From a bacterium (GTDB lineage: Bacteria > Patescibacteriota > CPR2 > UBA1875 > JAJYID01), in contig JAUSJO010000002.1 in assembly GCA_030647205.1 (NCBI GenBank), forward strand, positions 11,261 through 75,260: a stretch of 64,000 nt of DNA, in the 5' to 3' direction. The notes under the pieces were generated by a model. It was not told where the DNA came from and made no database searches. It was given only the letters and a program-made list of their open reading frames with translations. This document shows, in pieces, positions 14,159 through 33,000 of this stretch. Position numbers and translations under genes: made by a program. Numbering within the stretch: position 1 is the stretch's first letter; each line of letters opens with the position of its first letter.

Positions 14159-14167
14159 AGTTAAGAC

Positions 14168-14869: not shown

Positions 14870-14889
14870 AATTTTCTAATCCTAACCTG

Positions 14890-15603: not shown

Positions 15604-15688
15604 TTGTTTAGTCTTGGTTTAATATCCCTCTCAGATATAATAGCATATGTATTTTTAATAATAAATTCGGTATAGGTAGGCGGCCCTT

Positions 15689-16294
15689 TTATCTATATTG
15701 CCATATGATAGTCAAATTCTTTTCCGGATGGGGGACTCCGTTTGCGTCAAACCACTCAAGAACCCGCCTTTTGGCTTCCTCGGGATTTTCCTTGGAAACA
15801 TAAACAAAGAATTTATCATCATATGTCGGCTTGTTTATGTAGTAATATTTGGAGTCATCCTTGAAGGGCAGCTTATAGTAGAAGGGATATTTGTTCCTTA
15901 CAGACTCTAGTTTTGCTTGCCAGCTTGGGTCTGGTCTTCCACCGCCAAAGTTTGACTCTAGCGCCTTTTGTGATGGCCGATGCGGGCTCCTCTTTAAAGT
16001 ATATGAGAGCTTGATATTTTTGTCGGATGAACTCACTTTAAAATCGGCTTCTTGGTCTTGGTAGCCGTCTTTTGAGAGTTTTATTTTATAGTTTCCGGGC
16101 TTGATCTTAATCTCAGAAGGGGTTTTGCCTTCCTCGGACCCAACCTTAAAAGATGCTTCGTTCGGGATTGTGCTGATTGATACCGTTAATTTTTTGTTTT
16201 TGGGTATTAAAATAAGAGCGCCCACTAGAAAGGCCAACAAGATCACCGAAAGTAGGGCCACTCCTATGATTGTCTTTTTATTATTATTCACCAT
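15689..16294 (-). CDS. membrane-anchored PEGA-domain protein
   Basis: N-terminal TM, then ...GKTPSEIKIKPGNYKIKLSKDGYQDQEADFKV (PEGA-like beta-sandwich motif). Confidence 0.45.
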   Translation of the reverse strand: MVNNNKKTIIGVALLSVILLAFLVGALILIPKNKKLTVSISTIPNEASFKVGSEEGKTPSEIKIKPGNYKIKLSKDGYQDQEADFKVSSSDKNIKLSYTLKRSPHRPSQKALESNFGGGRPDPSWQAKLESVRNKYPFYYKLPFKDDSKYYYINKPTYDDKFFVYVSKENPEEAKRRVLEWFDANGVPHPEKNLTIIWQYR

Positions 16295-16305
16295 ATATTA
16301 AAACC

Positions 16306-18003: not shown

Positions 18004-19821
18004 CTAGGCCTCCTCATTTTCCGCTTTTTGTTCAGCCATTCTTTTTAGCTGTTCAGGGTTGGTTGTCACTAGGGAATCTTCTTTCATAGAGCAGATTATT
18101 TGGACGATAGCATGATTCATGCCAGCAATAAATATTCCTTCACCCGTGGAGCACTGAAGCAGGAAGTTTTTCTCGGGGGCAGTCAGGTCAAACACTTCTT
18201 GCATCAAATCAACTTGGGATGGATGTTGTTTTAAGAGTAGGGCCAGTGCCGCATTTGAAATCAAAGGTTTCCCGTATTCGCTTTTTAAGAAGTCGCCAAT
18301 ATCTTGTCCTATAGTGGTTAGGCCGAGGTAATATTTTCTGCCTCTTTTGGCTATAGAATATAAGAACTGTGCCGAATCTTCGTATTTCATCAAAACCCAG
18401 GCTTCATCCACAACCAGAATTCTCTTTTTCCTCTCACTTTTTACTTTGTTCCAAATAAAGTTAAGTACGCTATACATGGCAATGGGACGCAAGTCCTCTT
18501 CCAGATCTCTTATGCAGAAGCAGACAAAACGATTGGCAAGAGAAATGTTTGAGTAGTCATTGAATAGTCCTGAAAAGGTTCCCTCAGTAAACTTCTGAAG
18601 CCTGAGGGCCATGCTTTCTCCGCCGGGGATACTTTCAAGGACATGTTGAAGGTCAGACATTAGTGGTGGCGCCAAGCGGTGAGTTTTCGGGTCTTCTGTA
18701 ATTCCTTTTACTGCGTATGTTTCGGCTAAGGCCTTGTCCAAAACATTGCTCTCTTCATCCGAAAGTTTCCCCATCATTGTCCTTAGAAGGCCGGTAAGAG
18801 CGATAACATTACTTCTGAGGGAGTCCCTTTGTTCGGTATAGTCTGTAAGGTTTTGCGGAAGGTCAAAAGGATTGATAACGTCTTTAGAGTTTAAGTGGAT
18901 ATTTGCATAAGTTCCGCCAACTGCCTCACAAAGAGACTGAAATTCTTTTTCCGGGTCGATCACTATAATGTCTGCGTCAAACATCAGTTGCCGTAAAAGC
19001 TCAAGCTTTGTGGCATACGATTTACCACCACCGGATACCCCCAGTACGACCGAGTTATAGTTTTGGAGCTTAAATCGGTCAAAGATTATTAAACTGTTGT
19101 TAACTTTGTTAGCGCCGTATAAGATGCCTTCATTGTTGGTAAGTGTTGAGGATACAAACGGGAAGGATGCGGACACAGCCTCCGTATCCATATTTCTGGA
19201 GACGGTGAGCTCGTCTTTGCCCATTGGCAGGGTAGAGTTTAGCCCTTGTTCCATTTGTAGGTTGGCATGTTTTGTGAATACCAGTTGCGTTCCGAACATG
19301 TTCTCCACTATCTTGGTGCACTCGTTTAGCTTATCAAGAGACTCTTCATAGAGAGTGATGTACATGCCTTGCTTAAACATCTTTGACTGTCCGGTGACGA
19401 GGTTATCGCGAAGATTTTCTATATCGGAGTATGTTGCTTCAAGAAATGGATTTCTCGTTAGGCCTTTTTCGGCCTCCATAACCATTGATGACTCTATCTG
19501 GGTTGACTTGGCTCGTAGCTTTTTCGCAACTTCTTCTGTGTTTTGAGGGTATATAAAGATAGACAGATCAAGCATTATGTCTATATTTACAACAGGTGAA
19601 AGCCAGCTAGAGTCTAGAAATCTGGGATATTCATAGACAAAAAGGGTTCTTGTAAAAGTATCCCCGATTTTAAGATGGTCAAAAGCTAGCTCAAAGCTGG
19701 ATGGCGCTATCATGTCGCGAATAGAGGACATACCCTCCTGAAAGGACTGCTGCCTCTGCATTTCCTGAAGCTCCGCCGCTGTTGGTGGCTTCTGTTTTCC
19801 TAAAAGTTTGTCTAAAAACAT
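18004..19821 (-). CDS. virB4: VirB4/TrbE/CagE-family type IV secretion ATPase
   Basis: Walker A VLGVSGGGKSYAT, Walker B ILVVDEAW. ~600 aa conjugative ATPase similarity. Confidence 0.85.
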   Translation of the reverse strand: MFLDKLLGKQKPPTAAELQEMQRQQSFQEGMSSIRDMIAPSSFELAFDHLKIGDTFTRTLFVYEYPRFLDSSWLSPVVNIDIMLDLSIFIYPQNTEEVAKKLRAKSTQIESSMVMEAEKGLTRNPFLEATYSDIENLRDNLVTGQSKMFKQGMYITLYEESLDKLNECTKIVENMFGTQLVFTKHANLQMEQGLNSTLPMGKDELTVSRNMDTEAVSASFPFVSSTLTNNEGILYGANKVNNSLIIFDRFKLQNYNSVVLGVSGGGKSYATKLELLRQLMFDADIIVIDPEKEFQSLCEAVGGTYANIHLNSKDVINPFDLPQNLTDYTEQRDSLRSNVIALTGLLRTMMGKLSDEESNVLDKALAETYAVKGITEDPKTHRLAPPLMSDLQHVLESIPGGESMALRLQKFTEGTFSGLFNDYSNISLANRFVCFCIRDLEEDLRPIAMYSVLNFIWNKVKSERKKRILVVDEAWVLMKYEDSAQFLYSIAKRGRKYYLGLTTIGQDIGDFLKSEYGKPLISNAALALLLKQHPSQVDLMQEVFDLTAPEKNFLLQCSTGEGIFIAGMNHAIVQIICSMKEDSLVTTNPEQLKRMAEQKAENEEA

Positions 19822-19852: not shown

Positions 19853-20593
19853 TTATAATCCACTATCAATATTGTCTTCCGCAGACTGTCTGGTAGTAAT
19901 GTAGTTTGCTCCCAGTGTGTCCAGTCCCTTTATGTGTTCATGTCCAGCTGTCTCCGGGTTGTAGCAAGCATAGAAGAGCTCAACCAAAGCTTCTGTAGGG
20001 AGCGGTGTTAGCGCCAGTCCGATATCGGAAAAAAGGCCGGAAACTATTTGCGATCGTCTTTGGAGCTGTTGCCTGTTTTGAAGGTAGTTTTCATTCTCTC
20101 CTTCTTGAGTCTGCCCCTGTTTCTTTATACCAAACATAGCCATGATGCCCTTAGAGCTCTCGGCGACGACATTTGGATAGTATGGTATGATAACGAAAAA
20201 TCGCTTATCCATAACATTTACATTTGAGAGAATGTCTCTCAAGAAGAGAATGTACTCACTGGTTTGCTCTCTAAGTAGTGGTATGGGCTGATTTTGTGCG
20301 GATGTTTCTAGGAGCCCCAGGTAGTTTGTCAGGTCAAGTTTTCTCGACTGAACTAAGAACTGAACCGGAAACTCTAGGGAGTTTAGAGCGCTCTGGTATG
20401 CGGAAATAATAGACATTTTTTCCTCTTCGGCGCGAAGCTCCATATTGATACTGGAAACCATCATCACGGCTCTCATAGAACTATCCTTGAAAAGCAAAAG
20501 ATCGTCCTTTATCTGGTCAATTTCTAAAAACTTTTGAGTGCTCTCAAACGTTTGATGAATATTTTGCTGTGGATCTTTTTTGCTAAAAAACAT
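19853..20593 (-). CDS. hypothetical protein, possibly a separately encoded VirB4 N-terminal-like domain
   Basis: 246 aa, no TM. Lies 31 nt upstream of the virB4 ATPase ORF. Weak resemblance to the CagE/TrbE N-terminal region. Confidence 0.3.
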   Translation of the reverse strand: MFFSKKDPQQNIHQTFESTQKFLEIDQIKDDLLLFKDSSMRAVMMVSSINMELRAEEEKMSIISAYQSALNSLEFPVQFLVQSRKLDLTNYLGLLETSAQNQPIPLLREQTSEYILFLRDILSNVNVMDKRFFVIIPYYPNVVAESSKGIMAMFGIKKQGQTQEGENENYLQNRQQLQRRSQIVSGLFSDIGLALTPLPTEALVELFYACYNPETAGHEHIKGLDTLGANYITTRQSAEDNIDSGL

Positions 20594-20649: not shown

Positions 20650-21321
20650 TCAAGCCCCTTGTTTAGGAGGTTCTTTTCCTATCGCCTCATCTACTTTGTA
20701 GTATCCTTTTGTATCTGGTTGCTCATAGGTAAACTTTTTTCCCGGATCTACCGAGGCAAGGTCAGATATTGACGGCTCGGGATTGGTTTTAACTTTCCCC
20801 TCGGTTTCTTCTAGGGCTTTTTCCACAGCTACATTGCTTTTATCCATGAATGTTTCCGGTTCATCGGTTGGTGGCTTCTTTTGCATGGAACTGTATGCTC
20901 CACCGGTATCTACCATGAGTGAGAGCTCTTCAATCTGTTTTTCTGCGTCTAGCAGAGATGCTTTCTGGGGAGGTCCCTCTACAACCACTACCGTCTCTTC
21001 TTCCTTGGGCTTCAGGCTGACCGGCTCGACATACTTTTTCCAAACCCTCTTCCTCGGCTTAAAGAGATAGGTGACAAAATGACCCGAATATGTATAGATT
21101 GGTTTGCCATTGTAGGGGACGAAGCCGGCAACTAGTGCGGGGGAACCAATGATGCTTCCGACAATGATGGAGCCCATCAAGGAAATCCCGGCCCCTGTAA
21201 AAATAACCACGAAAACAGCCATAATAACGAAGAAAGCGAAAACAAAGCCGAAGCTTTTTAAGGTAAATGGGCCAACGACTTTATCTTCAACATTGATTTC
21301 CTGTGGTATTTTAAATTGCAT
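20650..21321 (-). CDS. VirB3/PrgI-like small membrane protein (two TM hairpin plus charged tail)
   Basis: N-terminal two hydrophobic helices (FGFVFAFFVIMAVFVVIF / LMGSIIVGSIIGSPALVAGF). Position between VirB6-like and VirB4. Confidence 0.35.
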   Translation of the reverse strand: MQFKIPQEINVEDKVVGPFTLKSFGFVFAFFVIMAVFVVIFTGAGISLMGSIIVGSIIGSPALVAGFVPYNGKPIYTYSGHFVTYLFKPRKRVWKKYVEPVSLKPKEEETVVVVEGPPQKASLLDAEKQIEELSLMVDTGGAYSSMQKKPPTDEPETFMDKSNVAVEKALEETEGKVKTNPEPSISDLASVDPGKKFTYEQPDTKGYYKVDEAIGKEPPKQGA

Positions 21322-21359: not shown

Positions 21360-23162
21360 TTATGTCAATAGTGTTGCTTTCCTGTGAAGCTCTGCTGCCT
21401 CAGCGCGAGTAGTACCGCTATGTCCATTTCTATTGTTTGCCATATCCAGCATCTGCTCTCTTAGGTCTGAGGCTTGCTGTGCCTTTTTGGAGTCAGCCTT
21501 AAGACTTGTAAGCATTGAGTCTGTGATACTTGTGCCCCCAATGAGCTGATGCTTTAAAAGTCCAGGGTTGCTCCCTCCGTCACCTTTTATATCAGGCGTA
21601 ATCATATCTCCAACTGAGTGGCCAATTGTGGAAAAATCTTTACTGCGCAGCTGGTGTAGATTTGACTTCTTCAGGGCCTCGTCGTAGTTACCAGTTTGCA
21701 TGATGTGAGCTTTGACACTGTGATCAGTGGCTGCCTCGTAGTCCAGGGCGCCCTCTTTCACAAGGTGGTCGATAGCGGTTCCCTTGTTGCCTCCTCGTTT
21801 TTCCCAATCTTTCAGGCTTTTCTGTACATCGTCGCCGAGTTTGGAGCGGTCCAGGGTTCCTCGCGCATACTTACGCCTGTCGCTATTTGACATCCCGAGA
21901 TTACCAAACTTGTCTGCCAGGTCTCTGTTTAGGTTGATTTGATCCTGCGCGCTCTCACCAATTATTCTACCGCCAACTCCGGGTATTCGCCCAAAACTTT
22001 TTCTCATTTGTCCACCAAGCTTTTCCTGTTTTCTGGCAGCAATATTGCTACTTCTTTGTTTCGCCCAACCCTGCCAAGCTTTTGGATTTACAGTTGCCGG
22101 CAAGAGATTCACGCCGGCTTTTCCTGTTTTCTTTGCCATACTGCTAATGTGTGAGCCTACTGCGCCCAAGAAACCAAGCGGCAGGAAGACTGCCATGGGG
22201 ATGGATACTGCTCCGAGTAGGAATGCATCAAGTGCCTGGATTACCTCTTCGCCCTTTCCTTCGTCGTCATGAATGGCTTGAGCAAATGGAGTTTTGGCCT
22301 CTTCACTTGTAAAAATTGAGTTGGATGCCGCCATAAAACCAAGACCAATTGATAAGACAAAAAAGCATATGGGTAAGAAGATGGTCCACTTGATAAACAT
22401 GTCCCAAAACTTTTTAAATAATGGCTGAGTGGCCGGAAGGGCAATCAGCCCAAATGCAAGCGGGGAGATAACGATAAGCATTCCTAGTATAAAGCCTCTG
22501 ACGAAGAGTATTGCTGCCAAAAGCAAGAGCATCAAGAATGTCAAGACTGCGATAAGGAAAATGCCCACAGACACGGGCAGGCTAGGGACATCTCCTTTAG
22601 ACATTGCTAAGCCGATATTGTTCATGTAAATATCAAATTGATCTAAATTTTTTTTCGCTAGTGTTTTTGTTAGGGCTACACTTAAGTTAATAATGGAGCT
22701 ACAGATGAACTTACTGAAATAGACGAAAAATGCGGTCATGACAAGTTTTGGTATGAGTCTTTGAAAACCCCACTCTTCTATCTTAAATTTCATCATATTC
22801 ATAAAGGCGATAGCAATGACGGCAAGACCAAAGAGATCTAGTGTGGCTGCCTTGGTGTTTTGCCACTCGGTGGTGATTGCGGGGTTTGACACCAGATTCA
22901 TAGATGCATTAGCCCCTGATACCACAAGGTGGTAGCCCAAGCTTATAAGGTCGTAACCCGTTGCATAAAAAAACTCAGATATTCTCTCAAGTATCCACTT
23001 TATCCAGTTGGCTGGGTCTATAAAATCGAGTGATTGCGCATATGTGGGATGAGGTGTTAAGGTAAGGACCAGAGAAAAAATAAAAAGCGGGACCAAAAAC
23101 ATTAAAACATGTTTCGGTTTCGCTTCTTTAGAACTGAATATCTTTGATAAAAACACCCTCAT
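21360..23162 (-). CDS. VirB6/TrbL-like polytopic membrane protein with long hydrophilic C-terminal extension
   Basis: Signal/TM N-terminus, 5-6 TMs in the middle, ~250-aa charged C-terminus. Gene order pilin-VirB6-VirB3-VirB4. Confidence 0.45.
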   Translation of the reverse strand: MRVFLSKIFSSKEAKPKHVLMFLVPLFIFSLVLTLTPHPTYAQSLDFIDPANWIKWILERISEFFYATGYDLISLGYHLVVSGANASMNLVSNPAITTEWQNTKAATLDLFGLAVIAIAFMNMMKFKIEEWGFQRLIPKLVMTAFFVYFSKFICSSIINLSVALTKTLAKKNLDQFDIYMNNIGLAMSKGDVPSLPVSVGIFLIAVLTFLMLLLLAAILFVRGFILGMLIVISPLAFGLIALPATQPLFKKFWDMFIKWTIFLPICFFVLSIGLGFMAASNSIFTSEEAKTPFAQAIHDDEGKGEEVIQALDAFLLGAVSIPMAVFLPLGFLGAVGSHISSMAKKTGKAGVNLLPATVNPKAWQGWAKQRSSNIAARKQEKLGGQMRKSFGRIPGVGGRIIGESAQDQINLNRDLADKFGNLGMSNSDRRKYARGTLDRSKLGDDVQKSLKDWEKRGGNKGTAIDHLVKEGALDYEAATDHSVKAHIMQTGNYDEALKKSNLHQLRSKDFSTIGHSVGDMITPDIKGDGGSNPGLLKHQLIGGTSITDSMLTSLKADSKKAQQASDLREQMLDMANNRNGHSGTTRAEAAELHRKATLLT

Positions 23163-23217: not shown

Positions 23218-23562
23218 CTATTTGTTGAGAACGCCTAGAACAACATTGATCAGGACTAAGGACAGAACGATTATCGCCAAGCCAACAAGTGCGAAAATGA
23301 TAGTTTTCTTTGCCCCTTCCGTCTGAGTCGGGTTGCCGGCAGAAACGATATATCTGATACCGCCGATAACAAGGAAAACAACCGCTACAAGTCCTGCGAT
23401 ACCGAGCAGCCAGTTTCCAATGGCCTTAATAGTGTCTGATAAGCAAGTTTCGCTTGAACAGTCCTTGATCGTGACGTCTACGTTTTGTACATCGGCGAAA
23501 GCACCGGCTGGCAGAAGAACATGAGCTATAAAGACCGACGTTGTTAAAATTTTCTTTTTCAT
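23218..23562 (-). CDS. VirB2/TrbC-like pilin (paralog 1, minimal form)
   Basis: Signal peptide, short Cys-containing segment, then two hydrophobic helices split by a short loop: LVAVVFLVIGGIRYIVSAGNPTQTEGAKKTIIFALVGLAIIVL. Confidence 0.5.
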   Translation of the reverse strand: MKKKILTTSVFIAHVLLPAGAFADVQNVDVTIKDCSSETCLSDTIKAIGNWLLGIAGLVAVVFLVIGGIRYIVSAGNPTQTEGAKKTIIFALVGLAIIVLSLVLINVVLGVLNK

Positions 23563-23690
23563 TTTTTTTGCTCCTTTTTTAAGTAGGATTTTATTTTTAT
23601 AAATTTATTCTAATGCTTTTTTATTTTGTTTGCAAGCTATTTAATATATTACCACATTGGACACTAAATTTAACAAACTTGTCCACTTAT

Positions 23691-24233
23691 TTATTTAAAA
23701 AGACCGGCTAAAAGCGAAATTACTAAGTATGACGATATGATTATTATAAGGCCTATGATGGAGCCGACAATAGTTTTCTTTGCCAGCCCGGTTGCAGTCG
23801 GGTTCCCTGCAGATACTATATACATAACCCCGCCGATAAGAACCATAATCAAAAGTATGATGCCGGCAAACCCCATGACTTTATTTAAGGCGCTTTTTAT
23901 AACCTTTCCAAGCTCATCTTTGCCCGGATCATCCTTTCCTTCCTTGAAAACACTGTCGTTGCTACGGTCACCAGTGGTGCCCGTCGTCCCCCCGGTTGTG
24001 CTGGTACTATTGCTTGCTGCGCTGCCCGGGGCCGTTGATGTGCCTGTGCTTGTGTTTTCTACAGAACCTTGCGCTTGGGCGTCGCCTTGATATCTTTGTT
24101 CGATCGCGTGAGTGTGCGGATTCAAGCCAGTAGCTGCCTGGAAAAAACTAATTGCAAGAAAAACAAATGCAGTTAGGCAGGGGATAAGCAAAAATTCTTT
24201 TTGGAAATGTCTAAATTTTCTCATTTTTTGCAT
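23691..24233 (-). CDS. VirB2-like pilin paralog 2 with Gly/Thr/Ser-rich N-terminal extension
   Basis: N-terminal TM, GTSTAPGSAASNSTSTTGGTTGTTG low-complexity region, C-terminal hairpin IGGVMYIVSAGNPTATGLAKKTIVGSIIGLIIII. Confidence 0.45.
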   Translation of the reverse strand: MQKMRKFRHFQKEFLLIPCLTAFVFLAISFFQAATGLNPHTHAIEQRYQGDAQAQGSVENTSTGTSTAPGSAASNSTSTTGGTTGTTGDRSNDSVFKEGKDDPGKDELGKVIKSALNKVMGFAGIILLIMVLIGGVMYIVSAGNPTATGLAKKTIVGSIIGLIIIISSYLVISLLAGLFK

Positions 24234-24238
24234 TTAAT

Positions 24239-25384
24239 TTAATAAGGAGAAGCTCCTAAGAGGGCTAGAAATATATTCATGCCAAGTATCAGAGTAATGC
24301 CGATAAGCGCGTACTTAATATGTTCTTTAGCAGTTGATATTTGTCCAGGGTTACCGGCGGCTGTGGCATAAAGTACCCCGCCGAATATAATCTTTAGCAT
24401 CGCAAGGCCGCCAAAGACGATGCTAGCGATACTCATAACGTCTCTAGCAAAAGTCTTAACATCCCCGTCTCCGCAGAATGACTTGTCTTTATTTACACAT
24501 TTCATATTATTGACCAGACCTGATAAGGTGTCGTTGCCAGGAAGCCAGCTTCCTAGCTCTAGCTTATTCATAAACTGTTGTATTTCTTTCTGATAAGAAT
24601 CATTTACATTATCGGCTGTTGCTCCACAGTTTTGCAGGTAGGTAGTAGCGTCTGCTATTTGTGTTGATTGTTTACATGCATTAAGGTCACATCCTTGATG
24701 GCGGGAACTACCTATTTCGCATAACCTGTTAATAGTTCCTCTGACATCAACTATTGGTACTCTACTGGTTTGGGTCCAAGCACCTATCCATTCGTCTGTT
24801 GCGCAAGGGCGGTCGCCATGGGCCGGGATATATGTTCTGCATGCGCCTTGTCCGTCATTGTGTATGCCTTCCTGTTGGCATTGCCCTTCGCTAATTGTTC
24901 CCGCACTCATGAAAGCAGCGTACCAGCAGTTGTCCAGACAGTTATCACACTGGCTTCTGTAGTTACTCTCTGCTGTTGTTACCCAAAACTGACTGTAGTA
25001 GTCTTCGAAAGCAAGACAGTAATCACCTCCGGCGCAATCTTCCGCACTTGTCTCCCCGCCTCCAAGGGAGTAACACCTAAAAACACATTCGTCATTCCAC
25101 TCTCCGGTCATACATTCTCCATTGGAAAACAAATCGGTACCCCCTACACCACTGTCGCCTTCCGGGCACGTTTTGGTCATGCCCAGTGTATTTTTTGCCC
25201 ACTCATCTATGCAAGCTCTATAGTCACTAGCGGAATTCCAAAACCTACTACAATCGTGTCCAGGAGTACTGGCATGGGCGATCAAAGAGTTTTGTGTGGG
25301 CCCACCGATAAAGGAGATAATATTAAAAAGAACAAATACCGCAACAAATATTGTTATTAAAGAAAGTAGCTTTCTAACCCTCAT
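24239..25384 (-). CDS. VirB2-like pilin paralog 3 fused to a ~300-aa Cys-rich extracellular domain
   Basis: Start taken at the internal ATG (MRVRKLLSLITIFVAVFV). More than 30 Cys in the ectodomain. C-terminal IFGGVLYATAAGNPGQISTAKEHIKYALIGITLILG hairpin. Confidence 0.45.
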   Translation of the reverse strand: MRVRKLLSLITIFVAVFVLFNIISFIGGPTQNSLIAHASTPGHDCSRFWNSASDYRACIDEWAKNTLGMTKTCPEGDSGVGGTDLFSNGECMTGEWNDECVFRCYSLGGGETSAEDCAGGDYCLAFEDYYSQFWVTTAESNYRSQCDNCLDNCWYAAFMSAGTISEGQCQQEGIHNDGQGACRTYIPAHGDRPCATDEWIGAWTQTSRVPIVDVRGTINRLCEIGSSRHQGCDLNACKQSTQIADATTYLQNCGATADNVNDSYQKEIQQFMNKLELGSWLPGNDTLSGLVNNMKCVNKDKSFCGDGDVKTFARDVMSIASIVFGGLAMLKIIFGGVLYATAAGNPGQISTAKEHIKYALIGITLILGMNIFLALLGASPY

Positions 25385-25470
25385 GCCTTTATTATAGTTA
25401 TGTTCTGGGAAGCGTGTAAAGAAGAAAATTATTTTTAGAGCCACTCTTGGGGTGCAAAGAGGTTCAAAAA

Positions 25471-25530
25471 GAAAAAGGCCCGCGGTAGTTTAGAAAACAA
25501 ATGTTTTCAAACTAAGCGGGCCTTTGGGGC
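25471..25530. terminator. bidirectional hairpin terminator
   Basis: AAAAAGGCCCGC...GCGGGCCTTT. GC stem flanked by A-run and T-run, between two minus-strand units. Confidence 0.5.
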
Positions 25531-25536
25531 ATTTTC

Positions 25537-25911
25537 CTAAGGGAGGGGGTGCCTGCGGAGGGCTTCTCTGCGAGCTTCATCGTCTCCGAAGTACTTGGGG
25601 TCGAGCGCTGCCTGGTTTTTCTCTGCTGCCTTCTTCTCATCATTGTCTTCCTCGTTAGAGTCAGAAGAGAACCGCGGTTTAATGAGATGAATCCAGGCCG
25701 GCTTGACTACAAGTCGCCAGATGGCATAGAAGACGCTGATGCGTACCAGGTTCCAGAAGACTGCTCCCGGCTGCGGTTTATAACATATGACGACGAGGAT
25801 CACGATGGGGATTATAACCGATGGTTTTAATCCCTTCTTGTACCAGCTGGCCCAGCCGGACCAGTCCGGTTTGCCTTTCTTGTTGCTCTTCGTATTGTCA
25901 GCCATCTCCAC
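25537..25911 (-). CDS. small membrane protein, hypothetical (GC-rich mini-island)
   Basis: One or two TM helices, basic N-terminus, acidic tail. ~50% GC. Confidence 0.4.
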   Translation of the reverse strand: MEMADNTKSNKKGKPDWSGWASWYKKGLKPSVIIPIVILVVICYKPQPGAVFWNLVRISVFYAIWRLVVKPAWIHLIKPRFSSDSNEEDNDEKKAAEKNQAALDPKYFGDDEARREALRRHPLP

Positions 25912-26050
25912 TCCTTGGATAGGTTTGAATGCTTAGGTGCTTCTAACCAAACTTTCTCTTTTTGATTAGAATATAACATTATACATCAAATATATTATTT
26001 GTCAATGGTTTTCTTTTGATGGCAAACTGGTTTGAGAAAACCAAGAAATG

Positions 26051-26078
26051 AAAAAGGCACCGATCGCTCGGTGCCTTT
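26051..26078. terminator. rho-independent terminator
   Basis: AAAAAGGCACCGA-TCGC-TCGGTGCCTTT, perfect 8-bp stem. Just downstream of the 26102 stop on the minus strand. Confidence 0.55.
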
Positions 26079-26101
26079 AAGGGTGGCTATGAAAGTATAG
26101 C

Positions 26102-26536
26102 TTACTTTCTTTGGAAGCTTACCCCTCTTTGTGTATCATAGAGGGTGTTGCCAACAACCTCGAGCTTACAGATGGACTCTAGCTCTAGTGTTATAGTGTT
26201 TCCGTTCATCGACCACTCTCCGAAGTTGGGGTTCATGAGTTTCCATGACCAGCCACCTTGCTGGCTGTAGTGTAGCCTGGTACTTATTCGGCCATTCTCA
26301 AGAAGCTCTATGCAGGGATCTTCGGTTTTCTCTCCTGCCAGTTTTGCGTCTGTACAGTACTTCCCGGCCATTTCCGCATAGTAGGCCGGCGCTGCATTGC
26401 GCTCCATGTATGACGTGATCGCCAGGTAAGATACGGCTACGGTGATGACACTCCCCAGGGCAAATGCCAGGAAGATGAGCCACTTCTTACTTACCTTGTT
26501 TCCAAAAACTGATGTTTGTGATGCTGCCTGCGGCAT
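26102..26536 (-). CDS. membrane-anchored hypothetical protein (GC-rich mini-island)
   Basis: N-terminal TM KKWLIFLAFALGSVITVAVSYLAI. No known domain. Confidence 0.4.
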   Translation of the reverse strand: MPQAASQTSVFGNKVSKKWLIFLAFALGSVITVAVSYLAITSYMERNAAPAYYAEMAGKYCTDAKLAGEKTEDPCIELLENGRISTRLHYSQQGGWSWKLMNPNFGEWSMNGNTITLELESICKLEVVGNTLYDTQRGVSFQRK

Positions 26537-26720
26537 CGCGGATCATCTCCTTTCGAGAGAAACAGACTTGGATTTTTAAGTGCGTCTTAAAGAAGTATTC
26601 TCATATTTCAATAAGATGTATGATTTACAAGATACCATAAAAGTTATGTTTAGTCAAGTGTTTTTTTGACAAGACGAGTATAACGCAAATTTGTCCTCCG
26701 GGAAAACAAAACATGAAATA

Positions 26721-26751
26721 AAAAACTGCCTTGGTTTTCATGGCAGTTTTT
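26721..26751. terminator. rho-independent terminator downstream of hsp20
   Basis: AAAAAACTGCC...GGCAGTTTTT. Confidence 0.5.
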
Positions 26752-26770
26752 AAAGAGTGTATTTTTTTGT

Positions 26771-27181
26771 TTAGTTTGCTCTGACTTTAACCTTTTTGGA
26801 GGTCTGTTTTTTCAGTTTTGGTATTCTGACGGTCAGGATGCCATTTTTGAAAGTTGCTTCTGCTTTGTCGGCGTCACACTCTACGGGTAGCATAACCTGT
26901 CTTGCAAATGATCCCCAGTAGCATTCCTGAAAATGGTAGCCTTCCTGGTCAACTTCCTTTTCGTCATATCTTTCCCCGCGAACCGCTACAGACTCATTTG
27001 TTACGTCTATATCTATGCCTTCAGGATCAACACCGGCAACAGGTGCTTTAACCACTACCTCGTTTTTTGTCTGATATACATCAACAGCCAGCTGGCCCTC
27101 AACATCATCTGCCGCCCAGTCAGATCCTGCCAAACCGCCTGCGAAAAATCCCTCATCAGTAAGAGAACTGTCTTTTTTCAT
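26771..27181 (-). CDS. Hsp20/alpha-crystallin small heat-shock protein
   Basis: ACD-domain motifs ...VDVYQTKNEVVVKAPVAGV...GILTVRIPK. Confidence 0.85.
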   Translation of the reverse strand: MKKDSSLTDEGFFAGGLAGSDWAADDVEGQLAVDVYQTKNEVVVKAPVAGVDPEGIDIDVTNESVAVRGERYDEKEVDQEGYHFQECYWGSFARQVMLPVECDADKAEATFKNGILTVRIPKLKKQTSKKVKVRAN

Positions 27182-27272
27182 TATACCCCTCCTTGATCTT
27201 TAAAATCCTATAATTTGCTGATATTATAGTAGCCGAAATGTATGAGAAAAGCAAGTGTAATTTTTTACAAAA

Positions 27273-27968
27273 ATGAGCATTTTAACGAAAAATATCGGTG
27301 ATTTTTTGCTTGATGTGGTATTTCCGAAAAAGTGTGCTTCTTGTAGCAAGCTGGACACTCTTTTTTGCGAGAAATGCCGCTCAAAAATAATCTTTTTAAA
27401 AACCCAAAACTGTCCGTTTTGTCTCAAAATCACAACCAGAGGGCGGGTTTGCCCAAGCTGTAAAAGTAAAAGCGCTTTAACGGGTGTTTATGTGATCGCT
27501 CATTTTGATGGGCCGCTGAAAGAAGTTATCCATCAGTATAAATATGAGTTCGTAAAAGCGCTGAAAGATGATCTGGCAGACGTTGCCTGGCCGTACCTCG
27601 AGGATTTCCCTAAAAATGCCGTTTTGACCTGCGTGCCCTCAAGCCCTAAAAGACTAGCTTGGCGCGGTTACAACCAGGCGGAGGAAATAGCGAAGATTTT
27701 GGCTCAAAAGACCGGTATGCGTTTTTATCCTAGTCTGCTGAAACGCACGGAGTATAAAATTCCTCAGACGCAGCTTCGGCGCAAGGAAAGGTTTGAAAAT
27801 GTCAAAAACGCCTTCAAGATCGACAGAAAAATAGACCTAGAAGGAAAACAGGTGGTGATATTTGACGACCTGGTTACAAGCGGAGCCACGCTTGATGCTT
27901 GCGCCGGAGAAATCCGCAAAATGGGAGCTACGAGAGTGTGGGGTTTTGTGCTGGCGAGGAATAAGTAA
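27273..27968 (+). CDS. comFC: ComF/ComFC-family phosphoribosyltransferase (competence protein)
   Basis: N-terminal 4-Cys zinc ribbon (CASCSK...CEKCRSK...CPFC...CPSCKSK). C-terminal PRTase motif VVIFDDLVTSGATL. Confidence 0.8.
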   Translation: MSILTKNIGDFLLDVVFPKKCASCSKLDTLFCEKCRSKIIFLKTQNCPFCLKITTRGRVCPSCKSKSALTGVYVIAHFDGPLKEVIHQYKYEFVKALKDDLADVAWPYLEDFPKNAVLTCVPSSPKRLAWRGYNQAEEIAKILAQKTGMRFYPSLLKRTEYKIPQTQLRRKERFENVKNAFKIDRKIDLEGKQVVIFDDLVTSGATLDACAGEIRKMGATRVWGFVLARNK

Positions 27969-28320
27969 AAATGGTTCACTCAAACTCACATTTGTCATCC
28001 TGAGGTACGGAGGATCTCATCTTGTTATTCCGGACTTCCTGCCCGACTGAATAGTCGTTCGGGCGGGGATCCGGAATCCAGACCGATTAAATCTGCTATC
28101 ACAGTTATTATCATTTATCTACTTTTTGATAGCAAAAAGTAGCAAAAACTACCGGCTAACGATTATTTTCAAAGTGTCGGATATCTCCTCGTCTCAGGTT
28201 TAAAAAAATTAACTCGTTATCACTCAGACAAAATTATTTTTAAAATCTTCACTCGGCTCATCCTCTTTTTGAAAAAATCATGCCGAACGAGAGGGAGAGA
28301 TAGACCTAAAGATGCAGGTG

Positions 28321-29937
28321 CTACTCTTTAATAACTTTCAGAACCTCAACAATGTTGACTATTCCTTCGATTGCCTTTAGGAAACCATCTTGCTCCATAG
28401 TCAGCATGCCGTCTTTTATGGCGATTTCCTTGAGTTCGTGTAAAGTATTGTTTTCTACAACTGCTTTTTGAAAAGCAGGCGAGACACTAAGGAACTCATA
28501 AATACCGAGACGGCCTTTGTATCCAATATTATTACACTCTTTGCATCCTATACCCTGGAAGAACTCAGGTGTTTTTTCCGGTTTGTGTTCGATAGGGAGA
28601 GAGTCAATGATCTTGTTTATCTCGACCATTTCGTGATCGTTTGGCTTGTATTCCTCGATACAATGCGGGCAAATTCTTCGTACCAGACGCTGAGCGATAA
28701 TGATATTTACAGCGTCAAGAAAGGATGAAGCGTCATTCACAAGACCGATAATTCTCGGAACAGCTGTGACAGCGTCATTTGCATGCAAAGTTGTTATGAG
28801 AAGATGACCGGTGATTGCTGCCTGAAGTGCAGTTTTTGCAGTTTCGGCGTCACGTATTTCACCAAGCATTATGATGTCCGGGTCTTCACGAAGGACGGCC
28901 TTTAGTCTATCAGCGAAACCTTCCCCTTCGTTAATCTGGGACTGAGTAGCGCCGGGAAGAGTGTACTCTATAGGATCTTCTAGGGTGATAAGCTTGATTT
29001 CCGGTGCATTTAATTTGTTTAAAATAGAATAAATACTGGTTGTTTTACCAGAACCGGTTGGACCGACGACGAGGATCATCCCGTGTGGGCGAATAAGTGC
29101 AGAGTCCAGTATTGGGCGCTGAATATCACGGACGCCTAGTTTGTCCATATCCAGTAGCTCTGCCTGAACGTTGAAAAGACGGATAACGATATCGTCGCCG
29201 TAAAGTGAAGGCATAACTTCTATTCTTACACTAAGCTCGTTGTCAGAAAACTTAACCTTGAAACGGCCGTTTTGCGGATAGTTTACGTTAAGTTTCAAGC
29301 CCGAACGCAACTCTACTTGCGATCGAACGAACTTGTATTGCTCGTGGCTCAAAATGGTTGCCAAATGCAGGACACCATCAAGTCGAAACCTCAGTTTCAC
29401 GTCATCGTTTGCCGGTTCAATATGAATGTCCGATGCGCCCATTGCGAAAGCCTCTATAATAATAAACTTTAGAAGCTCTTGTATAGGTGCAGTCTTAATC
29501 TTCTCTTGAAACTCATCAAAAGATATCTCGGAAATGTCCATCTCAGAAACATCTACCTCTCCCGGTGTTTCTGCCGGCGGAAGCTGGACAATGTCTCTTA
29601 AGAGTTCCTCGTTATCCTTGAAGCTTTCAGTAGATATAATAGCAACAGACGTCTTGGGATAGGTTTTTTTGTATTTCTCCTTAAATTCATTGATCTTTTC
29701 AGACTTAGGATTAGGAGAAACAATAACGAGAGTATCTTGATCCATTTTTAATGGGATTACAGAGCACTCAAAAAAGTCCTTGTTATTAAAATTTTCAAGA
29801 ATATCTTTTTCCAGGCGTGCAGCACGTAAGTCAAAATAAGGTATGCCGAGCCTTTCAGCCTCCTCTTGGATTTTTTCTTCAAGGGCATTCCTGTTGACAA
29901 GCTTTGCCTTGGCTACGACATCTAAAGTATCACTCAT
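28321..29937 (-). CDS. pilB: type IV pilus / type II secretion assembly ATPase
   Basis: GspE_N-like N-domain. Walker A VVGPTGSGKTTS. His and Asp boxes. Tetracysteine motif CPHC...CKEC. Start taken at the MSDTLD ATG. Confidence 0.85.
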   Translation of the reverse strand: MSDTLDVVAKAKLVNRNALEEKIQEEAERLGIPYFDLRAARLEKDILENFNNKDFFECSVIPLKMDQDTLVIVSPNPKSEKINEFKEKYKKTYPKTSVAIISTESFKDNEELLRDIVQLPPAETPGEVDVSEMDISEISFDEFQEKIKTAPIQELLKFIIIEAFAMGASDIHIEPANDDVKLRFRLDGVLHLATILSHEQYKFVRSQVELRSGLKLNVNYPQNGRFKVKFSDNELSVRIEVMPSLYGDDIVIRLFNVQAELLDMDKLGVRDIQRPILDSALIRPHGMILVVGPTGSGKTTSIYSILNKLNAPEIKLITLEDPIEYTLPGATQSQINEGEGFADRLKAVLREDPDIIMLGEIRDAETAKTALQAAITGHLLITTLHANDAVTAVPRIIGLVNDASSFLDAVNIIIAQRLVRRICPHCIEEYKPNDHEMVEINKIIDSLPIEHKPEKTPEFFQGIGCKECNNIGYKGRLGIYEFLSVSPAFQKAVVENNTLHELKEIAIKDGMLTMEQDGFLKAIEGIVNIVEVLKVIKE

Positions 29938-29961
29938 AGCTTGTATGATAGCATAATGTGA

Positions 29962-29990
29962 TTGAAAAAACACGAAATTTTAGCTATAAT
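29962..29990 (+). promoter_or_regulatory. sigma70-type promoter for the tandem tRNA-Ser genes
   Basis: TTGAAA-17 nt-TATAAT about 25 nt upstream of tRNA position 1. Confidence 0.5.
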
Positions 29991-30014
29991 ACATGGGTTA
30001 GAAACACATATTTT

Positions 30015-30104
30015 GGTGAGGTGGCCGAGTGGTTGAAGGCAGCAGTCTTGAAAACTGCCGTGCCGGCAACGGTACCGTGGGTTCGAATCCCACCCTCACC
30101 GCCA
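30015..30104 (+). tRNA. tRNA-Ser (anticodon TGA)
   Basis: GGTGAGG acceptor, D-arm GCC/GGC, anticodon loop CTTGAAA, long variable arm, GGTTCGAATCC T-loop, G73, encoded CCA. 90 nt. Confidence 0.85.
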
Positions 30105-30122
30105 TGATACAATTCAAATAGT

Positions 30123-30215
30123 GGAGAGGTACCCAAGTGGCTCAAGGGGCGGGTTTGCTAAACCTGTAGGTTGGGGTAACCCGGCGCGGGGGTTCGAATC
30201 CCCCCCTCTCCGCCA
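30123..30215 (+). tRNA. tRNA-Ser (anticodon GCT)
   Basis: GGAGAGG acceptor, anticodon loop TTGCTAA, long variable arm, T-loop TTCGAAT, encoded CCA. 93 nt. Confidence 0.85.
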
Positions 30216-30293
30216 GAAGAAAACAGGTCTGCATTTTTGTAGGTCTGTTTTCTTATTTGGCGGTAAGCAGTAAATCGTCAAGACATAAGTATA

Positions 30294-30322
30294 TTGTTTT
30301 TTAATTTTTTGAAAGTTATAAT
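30294..30322 (+). promoter_or_regulatory. promoter giving a leaderless/near-leaderless transcript for pilin paralog 4
   Basis: TTGTTT-17-TATAAT. The -10 ends 8 nt before the ATG at 30331, with no Shine-Dalgarno. Confidence 0.35.
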
Positions 30323-30330
30323 CTAAACAA

Positions 30331-30960
30331 ATGAAGACAAAGCTTACAAAAGTGAAAAAAGGAATGTTCCTACTTTGTGTATTTCTGCAAAGCTTGTTTA
30401 CTATCGGGGTTAGTACAGTGTATGCCCAAGGCGGTGATGTGCCGATACCAAATATTCCGCCGCCACCAAATGTGGAACTTTATAAGGTTCTTACTAATCT
30501 TGCGAATCTCATTCTTACGATCGCCGGGGCTCTGGTCGTAGTAATGGTAATAATAGGCGGAATCCGTTATATAATATCGGCAGGAAATCCGCAAATGGTC
30601 GAGGGAGCTAAGAAGACCATTATTTATGCACTTGTTGGTCTGGCGGTAATCATCCTATCAGCAGCAATACTTAATACAGTTAACTTTGTTCTAAATAAAA
30701 ATGGGGCCAGTGGTTCTACTACTGGTACTGGAACCGGCAATACTACCGGGACCGGCACACAGGCTCTCCCGGAAGACTCCTGTAGTACAGACTCGGACTG
30801 TGCATGCGGGATACACAAGATTGATAAGAATTGTTTCTTTGGCAACGAACAGTACGTTAACACCGATCCTGCACTTGCCTGTCCTGACTTTTGTTCAGGA
30901 GTAGGCGGGAACCTTACAGTTAAGTGTGTTAGCGATAAATGTGCTCAGGTTGCAAAATAA
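30331..30960 (+). CDS. VirB2-like pilin paralog 4 with Gly/Thr linker and C-terminal 8-Cys domain
   Basis: Signal peptide. IGGIRYIISAGNPQMVEGAKKTIIYALVGLAVIIL hairpin. GSTTGTGTGNTTGTGT linker. C-terminal Cys-rich knot (CSTDSDCACG...CPDFC...CVSDKC). Confidence 0.5.
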   Translation: MKTKLTKVKKGMFLLCVFLQSLFTIGVSTVYAQGGDVPIPNIPPPPNVELYKVLTNLANLILTIAGALVVVMVIIGGIRYIISAGNPQMVEGAKKTIIYALVGLAVIILSAAILNTVNFVLNKNGASGSTTGTGTGNTTGTGTQALPEDSCSTDSDCACGIHKIDKNCFFGNEQYVNTDPALACPDFCSGVGGNLTVKCVSDKCAQVAK

Positions 30961-32910: not shown

Positions 32911-33000
32911 GGAGAGGTCGCATAGTGGTCTAGTGCGCCGCCTTGGAAAGGCGGTATATCTGAAAGGGTATCGAGGGTTCGAATCCCTCCCTCTCCGCCA
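32911..33000 (+). tRNA. tRNA-Ser (anticodon GGA)
   Basis: GGAGAGG acceptor, anticodon stem CCGCC/GGCGG with loop TTGGAAA, long variable arm, encoded CCA. Confidence 0.85.

Follow-up and report, generated by a model that had tools for sequence, protein, structure and literature searches.

Four paralogous proteins (p1-p4) encoded in the window, the whole 64-kb stretch of DNA, are best explained, with a probability of roughly 60%, as the VirB2-like pilin set of the chromosomal type IV secretion system (T4SS) of a member of the Patescibacteria (CPR), a group of ultra-small parasitic bacteria, in which p2, p3 and p4 would act as head-bearing minor subunits (Table 1). Pilin arrays themselves are already known; what seems to be new here is the prevalence of domain fusions, a rule that places the largest gene first, and the behaviour of the p3 head as an exchangeable cassette. 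No description of these three features was found in the literature searched.

All four open reading frames are intact as first described, and their proposed identity as paralogous VirB2-like T4SS pilin-family proteins is supported by sequence comparison. Each exceeds the Pfam T4SS_pilin (PF18895) cutoff of 26.6 bits, the six pairwise BLASTP comparisons are all significant (E 2.6e-25 to 7e-10), and the full 64 kb, translated in six frames, contain the motif GG[IV]xY[IA]x[SA]AGNP four times and no more. The shared two-helix hairpin of the preliminary description stands, with 13 invariant columns in the alignment, while its length of ~45 aa was too short for a common module of ~72 aa (71 Pfam positions). 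Hydropathy and AF2 (hairpin pLDDT ~80) give two transmembrane helices separated by a short, basic loop (AGNP....AKK), and a Sec signal peptide is predicted in each protein; class III signal peptides and LPXTG motifs are absent from all four. Both hairpin termini lie outside the cell and the extra domains, which precede the hairpin in p2 and p3 and follow it in p4, are therefore extracytoplasmic, in agreement with the even Cys counts of p3 and p4 (20 and 8). More distant profiles gave a mixed outcome: TrbC (PF04956) scores 24.8 bits against p4 (E 2.6e-5; cutoff 27.9) and TrbC/VirB2 profiles match 7 of 74 long relatives (best E 2.3e-10), while a sequence-profile search of the PDB found no pilin. 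All four fall short of the 40-bit cutoff of NF045849 (pilin-like conjugal transfer protein), p1 (39.6 bits) and p2 (38.4 bits) only just. NCBI already names p1 (MDO8507010.1), p3 (MDO8507012.1) and p4 (MDO8507018.1) "pilin".

Table 1. Features of the pilin-T4SS region, with positions in the window.
Feature	Position	Strand	Description	Evidence
SLT transglycosylase	13502-14158	-	distal operon (13502-18003)	Pfam
ORF without assigned family	14168-14869	-	distal operon	
NlpC/P60	14890-15603	-	distal operon; 43% identical in L001	Pfam
PEGA protein	15689-16294	-	distal operon; 54% identical in L001	Pfam
C39-like peptidase protein	16306-18003	-	distal operon; 64% identical in L001	Pfam
VirB4-type ATPase	18004-19821	-		P-loop_TraG 89.9 bits, AAA_10 47.2 bits
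TrsD/TraC-like	19853-20593	-		NF041427 TrsD, weak match (E 1.5e-4)
PrgI (VirB3-like)	20650-21321	-		PF12666 34.2 bits
VirB6/TrbL-like	21360-23162	-	polytopic membrane protein; next gene downstream of p1	PF04610 26.4 bits
p1	23218-23562	-	114 aa; minimal T4SS_pilin	PF18895 51.5 bits
p2	23691-24233	-	180 aa; G/S/T stalk + hairpin	PF18895 29.8 bits
p3	24239-25384	-	381 aa; Cys-rich ectodomain + hairpin	PF18895 34.6 bits
p3 C-terminal hairpin	24242-24463	-		
p3 ectodomain	24464-25258	-	~265 aa, 20 Cys	
m124	25537-25911	-	small membrane protein upstream of p3; 42% identical in L001	
Promoter-like site	26005-25978	-	perfect TTGACA-16-TATAAT	consensus scan
Terminator-like hairpin	26078-26053	-		pattern scan
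m144	26102-26536	-	small membrane protein upstream of p3; 50% identical in L001	
HSP20	26771-27181	-		Pfam
ComF-like	27273-27968	+		Pfam
PilB-type ATPase	28321-29973	-		Pfam
tRNA-Ser	30015-30104	+		ARAGORN
tRNA-Ser	30123-30215	+		ARAGORN
p4	30331-30960	+	209 aa; hairpin + G/T linker + Cys domain	PF18895 46.3 bits
p4 hairpin	30478-30696	+	aa 50-122	
p4 C-terminal domain	30769-30957	+	63 aa, 8 Cys	

The candidate major pilin, p1, is minimal as first described: its predicted signal peptide (ending AFA, before D) is followed by a brief, exposed N-terminal segment that has two paired cysteines (C35, C40) and then by the hairpin (aa 41-114). In p2 the hairpin (aa 106-180) is C-terminal to the expected Gly/Thr/Ser-rich stalk, a low-complexity stretch of 62 aa (about aa 44-105) with 49% G+S+T. 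The predicted signal peptide of p4 ends at VYA, before Q, its hairpin is modelled by AF2 as H49-82/H87-125 (pLDDT ~80), and a 24-aa linker (aa 123-146; 62% G+T) leads to the Cys domain, whose motif is kept in the relatives P0010-P0012; its AF2 model has pLDDT <55, and the "knot" first described there is at most putative. The longest p3 ORF begins at GTG 25444, while ATG 25384, as called by NCBI, is most likely the true start; a promoter-like site with an 11/12 match (consensus scan) lies upstream of it at 25420-25391. Behind a predicted signal peptide that covers about aa 1-42 and ends at AHA, before S, p3 does carry the ectodomain claimed for it, which is smaller than the ~300 aa and poorer in cysteine than the >30 residues first given. 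Full-length p3 homologues number only about five among 5.8 billion proteins. Among p3-type proteins the hairpins are 64-86% identical and the heads 15-31%, except in P0002, a close allele with 85% identity in the head.

That the system is polymorphic, as proposed, is strongly supported for p3 by two related loci. L001 has the same synteny across the pilin-T4SS operon and a backbone 93-96% identical at the nucleotide level; VirB4 is 100% identical, p1 98% and p2 86% (its hairpin less variable than its N-terminal half), whereas p3 is only 35% identical. The p3 ectodomain shares no DNA similarity with L001 save for 43 matching nt on its signal-peptide side, and continuous similarity is back at nt 24436, the start of the hairpin. 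L084 has the opposite pattern: p3 codons 1-270 are ~90% identical in nucleotides and codons 271-382 ~70% (third positions 40-50%), with a breakpoint near codon 270. The breakpoints sit at the ectodomain-hairpin junction. These comparisons, drawn from short-read metagenome contigs in which chimeric assembly of co-occurring strains is possible, show an apparent exchange of the p3 head among close relatives through recombination at that junction. Swapping of a Cys-rich domain among near-identical strains is what one would expect if that part makes contact with the host. At 0.22, the dN/dS of the ectodomain speaks against an arms race by point mutation. Two further genes, m124 and m144, share the hypervariable block of p3 (~56-66% nucleotide identity vs L001); their products match no family in Pfam and NCBIfam-type profile scans.

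The array lies directly upstream of the VirB6-like gene in the order p3-p2-p1-VirB6-PrgI-TrsD-VirB4. The L001 orthologue of the VirB6-like protein, only 67% identical, matches TrbL_3, and that of the TrsD-like protein, 99% identical, carries PF26593 TraC-like. The promoter-like site after the terminator-like hairpin, both called by pattern match only, is the probable start of a transcription unit running from m124 through p3-p2-p1-VirB6 and onward. The dnaA, dnaN, rnpA and yidC families are all present in the window, and T4SS placement near dnaA has been reported (PMC12102498). The region is the T4SS locus already known from Patescibacteria, whose chromosomal T4SS is related to monoderm conjugation machines. 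Scanned individually, the window ORFs gave no recognisable relaxase, coupling protein, VirB5 tip protein or TraF-type cyclase. The start of p4 is 4.9 kb from the array, in line with the 5 kb first noted, but "next to pilB" was loose: the two genes are divergent with two tRNA-Ser genes in between, and in L083 the gene upstream of the p4 counterpart is GIY-YIG instead. The L082 contig ends at this point and is uninformative about pilB, while the glycoside-hydrolase gene downstream of p4 is kept in both L082 and L083. The p4-pilB adjacency is incidental and carries no signal.

Extensions or more than one hairpin occur in 34% of 357 hairpin proteins from 82 loci. Clustering of 66 extension regions gave 51 groups without relation to one another, and the median Cys content of these regions is 5.7% (background 0.59%, about 10-fold enrichment). 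Domain fusions are common within PF18895 and not peculiar to this locus. In 31 of 41 arrays the first gene is also the largest (9.3 expected by chance), and L086/L087 and L089, whose first gene has a p3-type hairpin, keep the large-medium-minimal order of the window. Linkage to T4SS genes in other genomes, whose absence had been named beforehand as grounds for rejecting the proposal, is present in 32 of the 82 loci and in 1135 of 1948 published assemblies (PMC12102498).

As the preferred reading has it, the hairpin would be the module recognised by the VirB6/VirB4 machinery. Because it is minimal, highly conserved and adjoins VirB6, p1 could make up the bulk of a short pilus or of a tube through the wall, with p3, p2 and p4 as low-copy subunits that use the shared hairpin to co-assemble, either at the tip or scattered over the shaft. 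A 265-aa head on every subunit could hardly be packed on a VirB2-type filament, so that p3 would be only a minor or terminal subunit. Displayed towards the surface of the host bacterium would be the Cys-rich head of p3, the flexible G/S/T spacer of p2 and the small disulfide-rich knob of p4, and exchange of the p3 head might redirect host contact without altering the part that faces the machine. From this architecture we infer pilus assembly and adhesion, and the words "adhesin" and "pilus tip" went further than the data: the extra domains of p2-p4 match no adhesin family in Pfam and both AF2 models of extra domains are low-confidence. These two points count against the pilus reading, as do the packing limit on large heads, the PDB result, the p3 dN/dS value, the possibly chimeric L001 and L084 assemblies, the loci without a T4SS gene discussed below, and the facts that no pilus has been observed for any Patescibacteria T4SS and that pili are mostly missing from its nearest monoderm counterparts (PMC10633639).

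The hairpin proteins could instead be integral-membrane channel components or accessories of the T4SS, the hairpin anchoring and docking while the fused domains are shown around the secretion site at host contact; small two-TM proteins may have such a role in conjugation systems of wall-less or monoderm cells. We consider this rather unlikely. The closest Gram-positive-type (monoderm) T4SSs are generally without pili (PMC10633639), NF045849, which p1 and p2 nearly reach, derives from Mycoplasma ICEs, large heads would be sterically awkward in a filament, and concatenated relatives with 6-11 hairpins resemble polytopic membrane proteins more than polymerising subunits; similarity to TrbC/VirB2, arrays of 3-6 divergent minimal copies, typical of pilin sets, and the published structure-based annotation as pilins all speak for pilins. 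It is improbable that the large paralogues are cargo, with the hairpin as an export handle by which the T4SS delivers wall-degrading enzymes, proteases or Cys-rich binders to the surface or the interior of the host envelope. Some long relatives do have SLT (two), SLT_3 (two), Peptidase_M23 (one) or Peptidase_S8 (one) domains beside the hairpin, and a separate VirB1 is usually not linked to these T4SSs (PMC12102498), but the fusions with SLT and M23 might just as well be VirB1 analogues, anchored and acting on the cell's own wall, a Sec signal peptide and two transmembrane helices suffice for outside placement without a T4SS, and the Pfam scan of p2, p3 and p4 recognised no enzymatic domain.

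It is very improbable that the family has nothing to do with T4SS function and serves as a general membrane anchor for secreted Cys-rich proteins or in an uptake device, with only a historical adjacency to VirB6. At 50 of the 82 loci no T4SS gene is detectable within 10 kb, and at 20 of these 50 an orphan SBP_bac_1-type solute-binding-protein gene lies directly upstream of the array. Against this stand the tight operonic linkage in the window and 32 loci, the published linkage, the TrbC homology within the family, and Southlakia epibionticum, in which the array SEML1_0014-0019 is essential, as are the T4SS genes.

Tandem arrays of VirB2-like pilins at the Patescibacteria T4SS locus have been published (PMC10633639, PMC12102498, PMC12857230) and, like that of the window, are chromosomal, stand beside VirB6/PrgI/TrsD/VirB4 and have a distal extra pilin; the lack of a recognised relaxase or coupling protein, in the window among the individually scanned ORFs, is a further likeness. 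The S. epibionticum array and the "Sec secreted array" of TM7x belong to the same Pfam family as p1-p4, and SEML1_0019-0024 keeps the window's order of array, Hsp20, ComF, tRNA-Ser and, further on, a pilin (SEML1_0024), there non-essential. In the literature the pilins of these arrays are small, alike in structure and divergent in sequence, with genes of 312-558 nt in S. epibionticum, whereas the first gene of the window adds its large 20-Cys head and p4 a C-terminal Cys domain. The VirB2 paralogue arrays of Bartonella and Anaplasma, interpreted as surface variation or broadened host interaction in work as summarised in PMC12102498, likewise combine tandem amplification with divergence. They differ in that short exposed segments vary in minimal pilins, with no grafting or swapping of whole domains. 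Classical VirB2, TrbC and TraA (PF04956 and relatives) share with p1-p4 a long signal peptide, two hydrophobic helices, a short basic loop and a gene beside VirB3/VirB4/VirB6 homologues; the profile similarity is weak but real, p4 alone among the four reaching the E-value given above, and the host here is a monoderm, unlike the classical setting. To our knowledge, and as the preliminary description held, no classical VirB2/TrbC pilin carries a large fused domain. The Mbov_0395 family of Mycoplasma ICEs (NF045849), also a component of a monoderm T4SS, aligns with the hairpin over 71 of 80 profile positions; we know of no Mbov_0395 protein that is arrayed or domain-fused, nor of conjugative pili made by Mycoplasma. 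Alike in design are modular type IV pilins (for example PilB/PilC of Streptococcus sanguinis) and two-domain tip adhesins such as FimH of chaperone-usher pili, in which a conserved polymerisation module bears a grafted low-copy head. Neither their pilin fold nor their assembly machine is related to that of p1-p4, and the design principle shared with p2-p4 is one of analogy only.

All four pilin genes p1 to p4 encode proteins that pass the gathering cutoff of the T4SS_pilin family (PF18895, 26.6 bits), with scores of 51.5, 29.8, 34.6 and 46.3 bits, respectively. Every one of the six pairwise BLASTP comparisons is significant (E 2.6e-25 to 7e-10), p1 and p4 being the closest pair (63% over the hairpin), and a six-frame translation of the window has exactly four copies of the core motif GG[IV]xY[IA]x[SA]AGNP. 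The common module comprises ~72 aa with 13 invariant positions. What is added to it differs: a Cys pair in a short exposed N-segment in p1, a 62-aa stretch that is 49% G+S+T in p2, and a 24-aa linker of 62% G+T followed by eight Cys within the last 63 residues in p4. The p3 product had been credited with more than 30 cysteines in the preliminary description; the actual count is 20, all within residues 65-324 of the long ORF. We took the shorter ORF for p3 because the NCBI start is the ATG at 25384 and an 11/12 promoter-like site lies just 5′ of it. The four genes bear no mark of recent gene conversion, DNA similarity being only 70-75% over 73-110 nt, and slippage-driven length variation of the G/T/S linkers was rejected since Tandem Repeats Finder reported no repeats encoding them. 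Compared with the hairpins of p1, p2 and p4, the p3-type hairpin (nt 24242-24463 in p3) has four inserted residues (FGGL) in helix 1. It defines a separate, well-conserved subfamily (LKIIFGGVLYATAAGNP...AKEHIKYALIG) whose members all carry large Cys-rich heads.

Hydropathy windows give each of the four proteins an N-terminal hydrophobic segment and two C-proximal segments, the latter forming two long hydrophobic helices joined by an AGNPxxxxxAKK loop. AXA-like sites, called by eye as signal-peptidase sites, follow the N-terminal segment in p1 (AFA↓D), p3 (AHA↓S) and p4 (VYA↓Q). A cleaved signal peptide together with a basic loop inside the cell would place both hairpin ends on the extracytoplasmic side. 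The segments added at the N terminus (p2, p3) or the C terminus (p4) would thus all lie outside the cell, which fits their even cysteine counts. AlphaFold2 (AF2) resolved only the hairpin of p4 (H49-82/H87-125, pLDDT ~80) and reached a pLDDT of 50 for p3 from an 8-sequence alignment; a sequence-profile search of the PDB gave no match.

The p3-p2-p1 array is physically tied to a type IV secretion system (T4SS). A VirB6 gene lies 55 nt downstream of the array, PrgI/VirB3, TrsD/TraC-like and VirB4-type genes continue on the same strand, and after VirB4 come genes for a C39-like peptidase protein, a PEGA protein, an NlpC/P60 protein and an SLT transglycosylase; p4 is 7 kb from VirB6. The same array layout is found in L001, a Logan contig (SRR22388055) collinear with the window. 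Ahead of m124, a small membrane-protein gene upstream of p3, a strong terminator-like hairpin is directly followed by a perfect sigma-70 consensus (TTGACA-16-TATAAT), both pattern matches only. As read from the sequence, this arrangement suggests a transcription unit running from m124 through p3, p2, p1 and VirB6 onward. The reading of these genes as VirB2-like pilins of a T4SS is correct, but it was already known and annotated, NCBI naming p1, p3 and p4 "pilin". A CHAP-domain protein of 476 aa, of the cell-wall amidase/peptidase type, is encoded elsewhere in the window as an additional wall-active protein beyond the SLT, NlpC/P60 and C39-like genes of the operon.

Features of the pilin locus and its surroundings, with protein identity to the collinear contig L001
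Feature	Position (nt)	Strand	Identity to L001 (%)	Remark
CHAP-domain protein	1050-2477	+		476 aa
dnaA, dnaN, rnpA, yidC	about 6500-11600			family-level matches
NlpC/P60			43	
PEGA			54	
C39-like			64	
VirB4-type ATPase	18004-19821	-	100	same strand as array
TrsD/TraC-like protein	19853-20593	-	99	same strand as array
PrgI/VirB3	20650-21321	-	92	same strand as array
VirB6/TrbL-like protein	21360-23162	-	67	downstream of p3-p2-p1
p1	23218-23562	-	98	intact ORF, 114 aa
p2	23691-24233	-	86	intact ORF, 180 aa
p3	24239-25384	-	35	381 aa (NCBI); longest ORF 24239-25444, 401 aa
Promoter-like site	25420-25391			5′ of the p3 ATG, 11/12
m144			50	small membrane protein
m124			42	small membrane protein
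Sigma-70 consensus	26005-25978	-		pattern match only
Terminator-like hairpin	26078-26053	-		5′ of m124, pattern match only
HSP20			98	
ComF			95	
p4	30331-30960	+		intact ORF, 209 aa
Four tRNA-Ser genes	30015-30215, 32911-33000, 44430-44521			anticodons tga, gct, gga, cga

Between the array and p4 lie HSP20, a ComF-like gene, a PilB-type ATPase gene and two tRNA-Ser genes. The position of p4 next to pilB had been remarked upon, yet the adjacency appears incidental: the two genes are divergent with the tRNA genes between them, and the gene upstream of p4 in the related contig L083 encodes a GIY-YIG protein (the L082 contig ends before that point). A functional link between p4 and pilB was rejected on these grounds. 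The neighbor of p4 that is conserved in related contigs is the downstream glycoside hydrolase gene. The window holds four tRNA-Ser genes in a 15-kb span, including the pair just ahead of p4. Family-level matches to dnaA, dnaN, rnpA and yidC, together with a minimum of the cumulative GC skew at ~8-10 kb of the window, put the T4SS cluster close to the replication origin, which would lie ~3-15 kb from the operon. With an origin at about 8-10 kb, transcription of the operon would run towards it, head-on with replication.

The p3 head, the cysteine-rich ectodomain that precedes the hairpin, behaves as an exchangeable cassette; only ~5 full-length homologues of it were found among 5.8 billion proteins. 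The backbone DNA of the window and L001 is 93-96% identical, while the stretch from ~26400 to 24440 is essentially unalignable; blastn similarity restarts at nt 24436, the start of the p3 hairpin. A second relative, L084 (SRR22388082), has the opposite pattern in p3: codons 1-270 are ~90% identical (third positions ~85%), and codons 271-382 are ~70% identical (third positions 40-50%) with a hairpin protein that is 86% identical. These two independent comparisons locate the recombination breakpoints where head and hairpin meet, in the interval from codon ~270 to codon ~316. Since both relatives are short-read metagenome contigs, chimeric joins between co-occurring strains are possible, which would weaken the claim of a same backbone but would not remove the divergent alleles. 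Among p3-type proteins in general, hairpins are 64-86% identical and heads 15-31%, except for the close allele P0002 at 85%. Pervasive positive selection on the head was rejected, with dN/dS of 0.22 against an 86%-identical allele; the head is thus under purifying selection within an allele class, and its diversity comes from allele replacement and not from rapid point substitution. The window and L001 also form a wider mosaic with boundaries that are sharp at the DNA level, divergent at 14890-18003, 21360-23162 and 25537-26536, with VirB4, TrsD, PrgI and p1 in between at 92-100%. The p4 protein is mildly variable (90.5% identical to its L082 counterpart vs 96% for neighbors), with changes mostly in the linker.

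The fusions are not peculiar to this genome. A profile of the four hairpins matched 51,956 representative clusters at E <= 1e-3 (1.84 billion proteins). A hairpin HMM was run on the ORFs of 80 loci retrieved from one-genome-per-species contigs, and results were compiled over 82 loci. Most loci have 3-6 hairpin genes, and the 357 hairpin proteins have a median length of 134 aa; 66% are minimal and the other 34% are extended or multi-hairpin (N-extension >70 aa, C-extension >30 aa, or more than one hairpin). BLAST clustering splits the 66 longer extension regions into 51 groups, which makes them largely unrelated in sequence; their median Cys content is 5.7% vs 0.59% in other long ORFs. Few are recognized by Pfam: SLT (two), SLT_3 (two), Peptidase_M23 and Peptidase_S8 (one each), and the Cys-rich modules DUF7107 (two), Dickkopf_N and EB. 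The SLT, SLT_3, M23 and S8 fusions may act as VirB1 analogues anchored in the membrane or as heads that breach the wall. In arrays of at least three genes with one member >200 aa, the longest gene comes first in 31 of 41, where 9.3 are expected by chance. The window array obeys this order (p3, p2, p1), as do L086/L087 and L089, whose first gene has a p3-type hairpin and in which a large Cys-rich protein is followed by a medium one and then a minimal pilin of ~115 aa; L089 has a VirB4 gene downstream of its array. A metagenome scan for p3-type hairpins returned seven loci only. The earlier characterization of these genes as modular, polymorphic fusions was sound, and it now extends to a family-wide pattern and to cassette exchange in p3. 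No description of the fusion prevalence, of the first-gene rule or of the exchange of the p3 head was found in the literature searched, to which the fusion pattern and the exchange are additions as far as its incomplete coverage goes.

Some ORFs carry several hairpins. Two-hairpin ORFs number 24 in the fetched loci, and pilin concatemers have 2-11 tandem hairpins in one uninterrupted frame, for example P0032 (552 aa), P0034 (820 aa), P0058 (1147 aa, with a Cys pair ahead of each hairpin copy) and L063 10765-12150 (three hairpins). As every hairpin is predicted to begin and end outside the cell, concatemers would be membrane proteins with 4-22 TM segments or covalently linked, "pre-assembled" pilin chains. 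We found no description of them in the literature searched.

In our preferred model, to which we assign a probability of roughly 0.6, the VirB6/VirB4 machinery would act on the hairpin, and p1 would make up the bulk of a short pilus or of a tube through the wall. The p3, p2 and p4 proteins would join the assembly as low-copy subunits, exposing a head (p3), a spacer (p2) or a knob (p4) towards the host, and head exchange would re-target host contact. A VirB2-type filament would not accommodate a 265-aa head on each of its subunits, and the model thus requires p3 to be terminal or sparsely placed. It is also conceivable, though rather unlikely, that the hairpins belong to channel-associated membrane proteins that never polymerize, with the heads displayed around the secretion site. 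The SLT, M23 and S8 fusions elsewhere in the family would be in keeping with a hairpin that serves as a delivery handle for payloads, which we consider improbable.

More improbable still is a role of the family as an anchor or uptake device independent of the T4SS, a reading suggested by loci that have no T4SS gene within 10 kb and by an association with solute-binding-protein (SBP) genes. Our own HMMs for VirB4, VirB6 and PrgI matched in only 32 of the 82 loci, leaving 50 without a T4SS gene within 10 kb. In these, Pfam searches of large same-strand ORFs matched 80 families; the 25 most frequent include no T4SS family and are led by SBP families. An orphan SBP_bac_1/SBP_bac_8 gene (~430-500 aa) sits directly upstream of the array (gap <300 nt) in 20 loci without a T4SS within 10 kb (including L015, L027, L030, L036, L040, L043, L047, L049, L059, L064, L069, L074, L075, L078 and L081), and an SBP gene lies downstream of the array in six T4SS-linked Saccharibacteria loci (L009, L012, L016, L021, L023 and L046). 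No ABC permease or ATPase gene was seen among the flanking ORFs scanned in four SBP loci; the SBP gene is absent from the window and is not mentioned in PMC12102498. Five loci with typical pilin arrays are labeled as predatory bacteria (L030, L049 and L059 as Bdellovibrionales/Pseudobdellovibrionaceae, L058 and L074 as Micavibrio). Spread to such bacteria was rejected: their ORFs of at least 350 aa are 47-90% (mostly 59-80%) identical to loci of Moraniibacteriota or other CPR, and the labels are probably binning or labeling errors.

A conserved machine-facing hairpin combined with hypervariable, exchangeable and, by prediction, disulfide-rich outward heads is what one would expect of a determinant of host specificity. 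Beyond the pilus model, we tentatively raise a broader possibility: the PF18895 hairpin may be a transferable element that lets a protein be built into the T4SS, the first array gene across Patescibacteria supplying a strain-specific cysteine-rich or enzymatic head that caps or decorates a T4SS pilus, with heads swapped by recombination at the head-hairpin junction setting which host bacteria an epibiont attaches to and feeds on. If so, the essential and functionally unexplained Patescibacteria T4SS would be an organelle of host recognition and wall breaching. If the heads are plain surface decoration, the finding shrinks to a family-level annotation note. "Adhesin" and "pilus tip" are still hypotheses.

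The locus is a Patescibacteria (CPR) T4SS locus, and its pilin array is of a kind already known. Quinonero-Coronel et al. (2025; PMC12102498) described 441 arrays of VirB2-like pilin genes (2-11 genes each) across 383 assemblies, with within-array identity averaging 25%, a pilin gene near virB4 in 1135 of 1948 assemblies and T4SS genes often near dnaA; their survey of 3,035 genomes reported "No adhesins" associated with the T4SS. A 2025 review restates these array findings and speculates on a pilus conduit (PMC12857230), and the T4SS has a "completely unknown" role according to a 2024 perspective (PMC11665869). By sequence criteria, p1 to p4 are PF18895 members, and membership of the type IV pilus (T4P) and sortase pilins is excluded: none of the four has the T4P class III signal peptide (G↓F/M-T-L-I-E, cleaved by prepilin peptidase) or an LPX[TSA]G sorting motif. 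The PF04956 (TrbC/VirB2) cutoff of 27.9 bits was not reached, the sole match being p4 (24.8 bits, E 2.6e-5, profile positions 5-97 of 98). TrbC matches at E <= 1e-3 were obtained for 7 of 74 long family members from other loci (best 2.3e-10). This indicates homology to VirB2/TrbC at the superfamily level, outside PF04956 itself. The curated 40-bit cutoff of NF045849, the Mbov_0395 family pilin-like conjugal transfer protein of Mycoplasma ICEs, was missed by p1 (39.6, short by 0.4), p2 (38.4, short by 1.6), p3 (24.9) and p4 (23.6 bits). Classical VirB2/TrbC pilins polymerize into an extracellular, lipid-containing conjugative pilus alongside a VirB5-type tip protein and, in the P and T types, a cyclizing peptidase. 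Neither of these partners was recognized among the operon genes scanned here; the operon does encode the C39-like peptidase protein. The closest parallel is with the cultivated Southlakia epibionticum, the sole Patescibacteria species tested genetically, in which the T4SS and pilin array are essential. Its gene order (pilins 0014-0019, Hsp20, ComF, tRNA-Ser, an STT3-like glycosyltransferase and pilin 0024; Wang et al., supplementary tables) matches the window in having the array, HSP20, ComF, tRNA-Ser and then a distal pilin. The p4 gene thus corresponds to a dispersed pilin that was already known, and in S. epibionticum pilins 0014-0019 are essential and pilin 0024 is not (Wang et al., supplementary tables).
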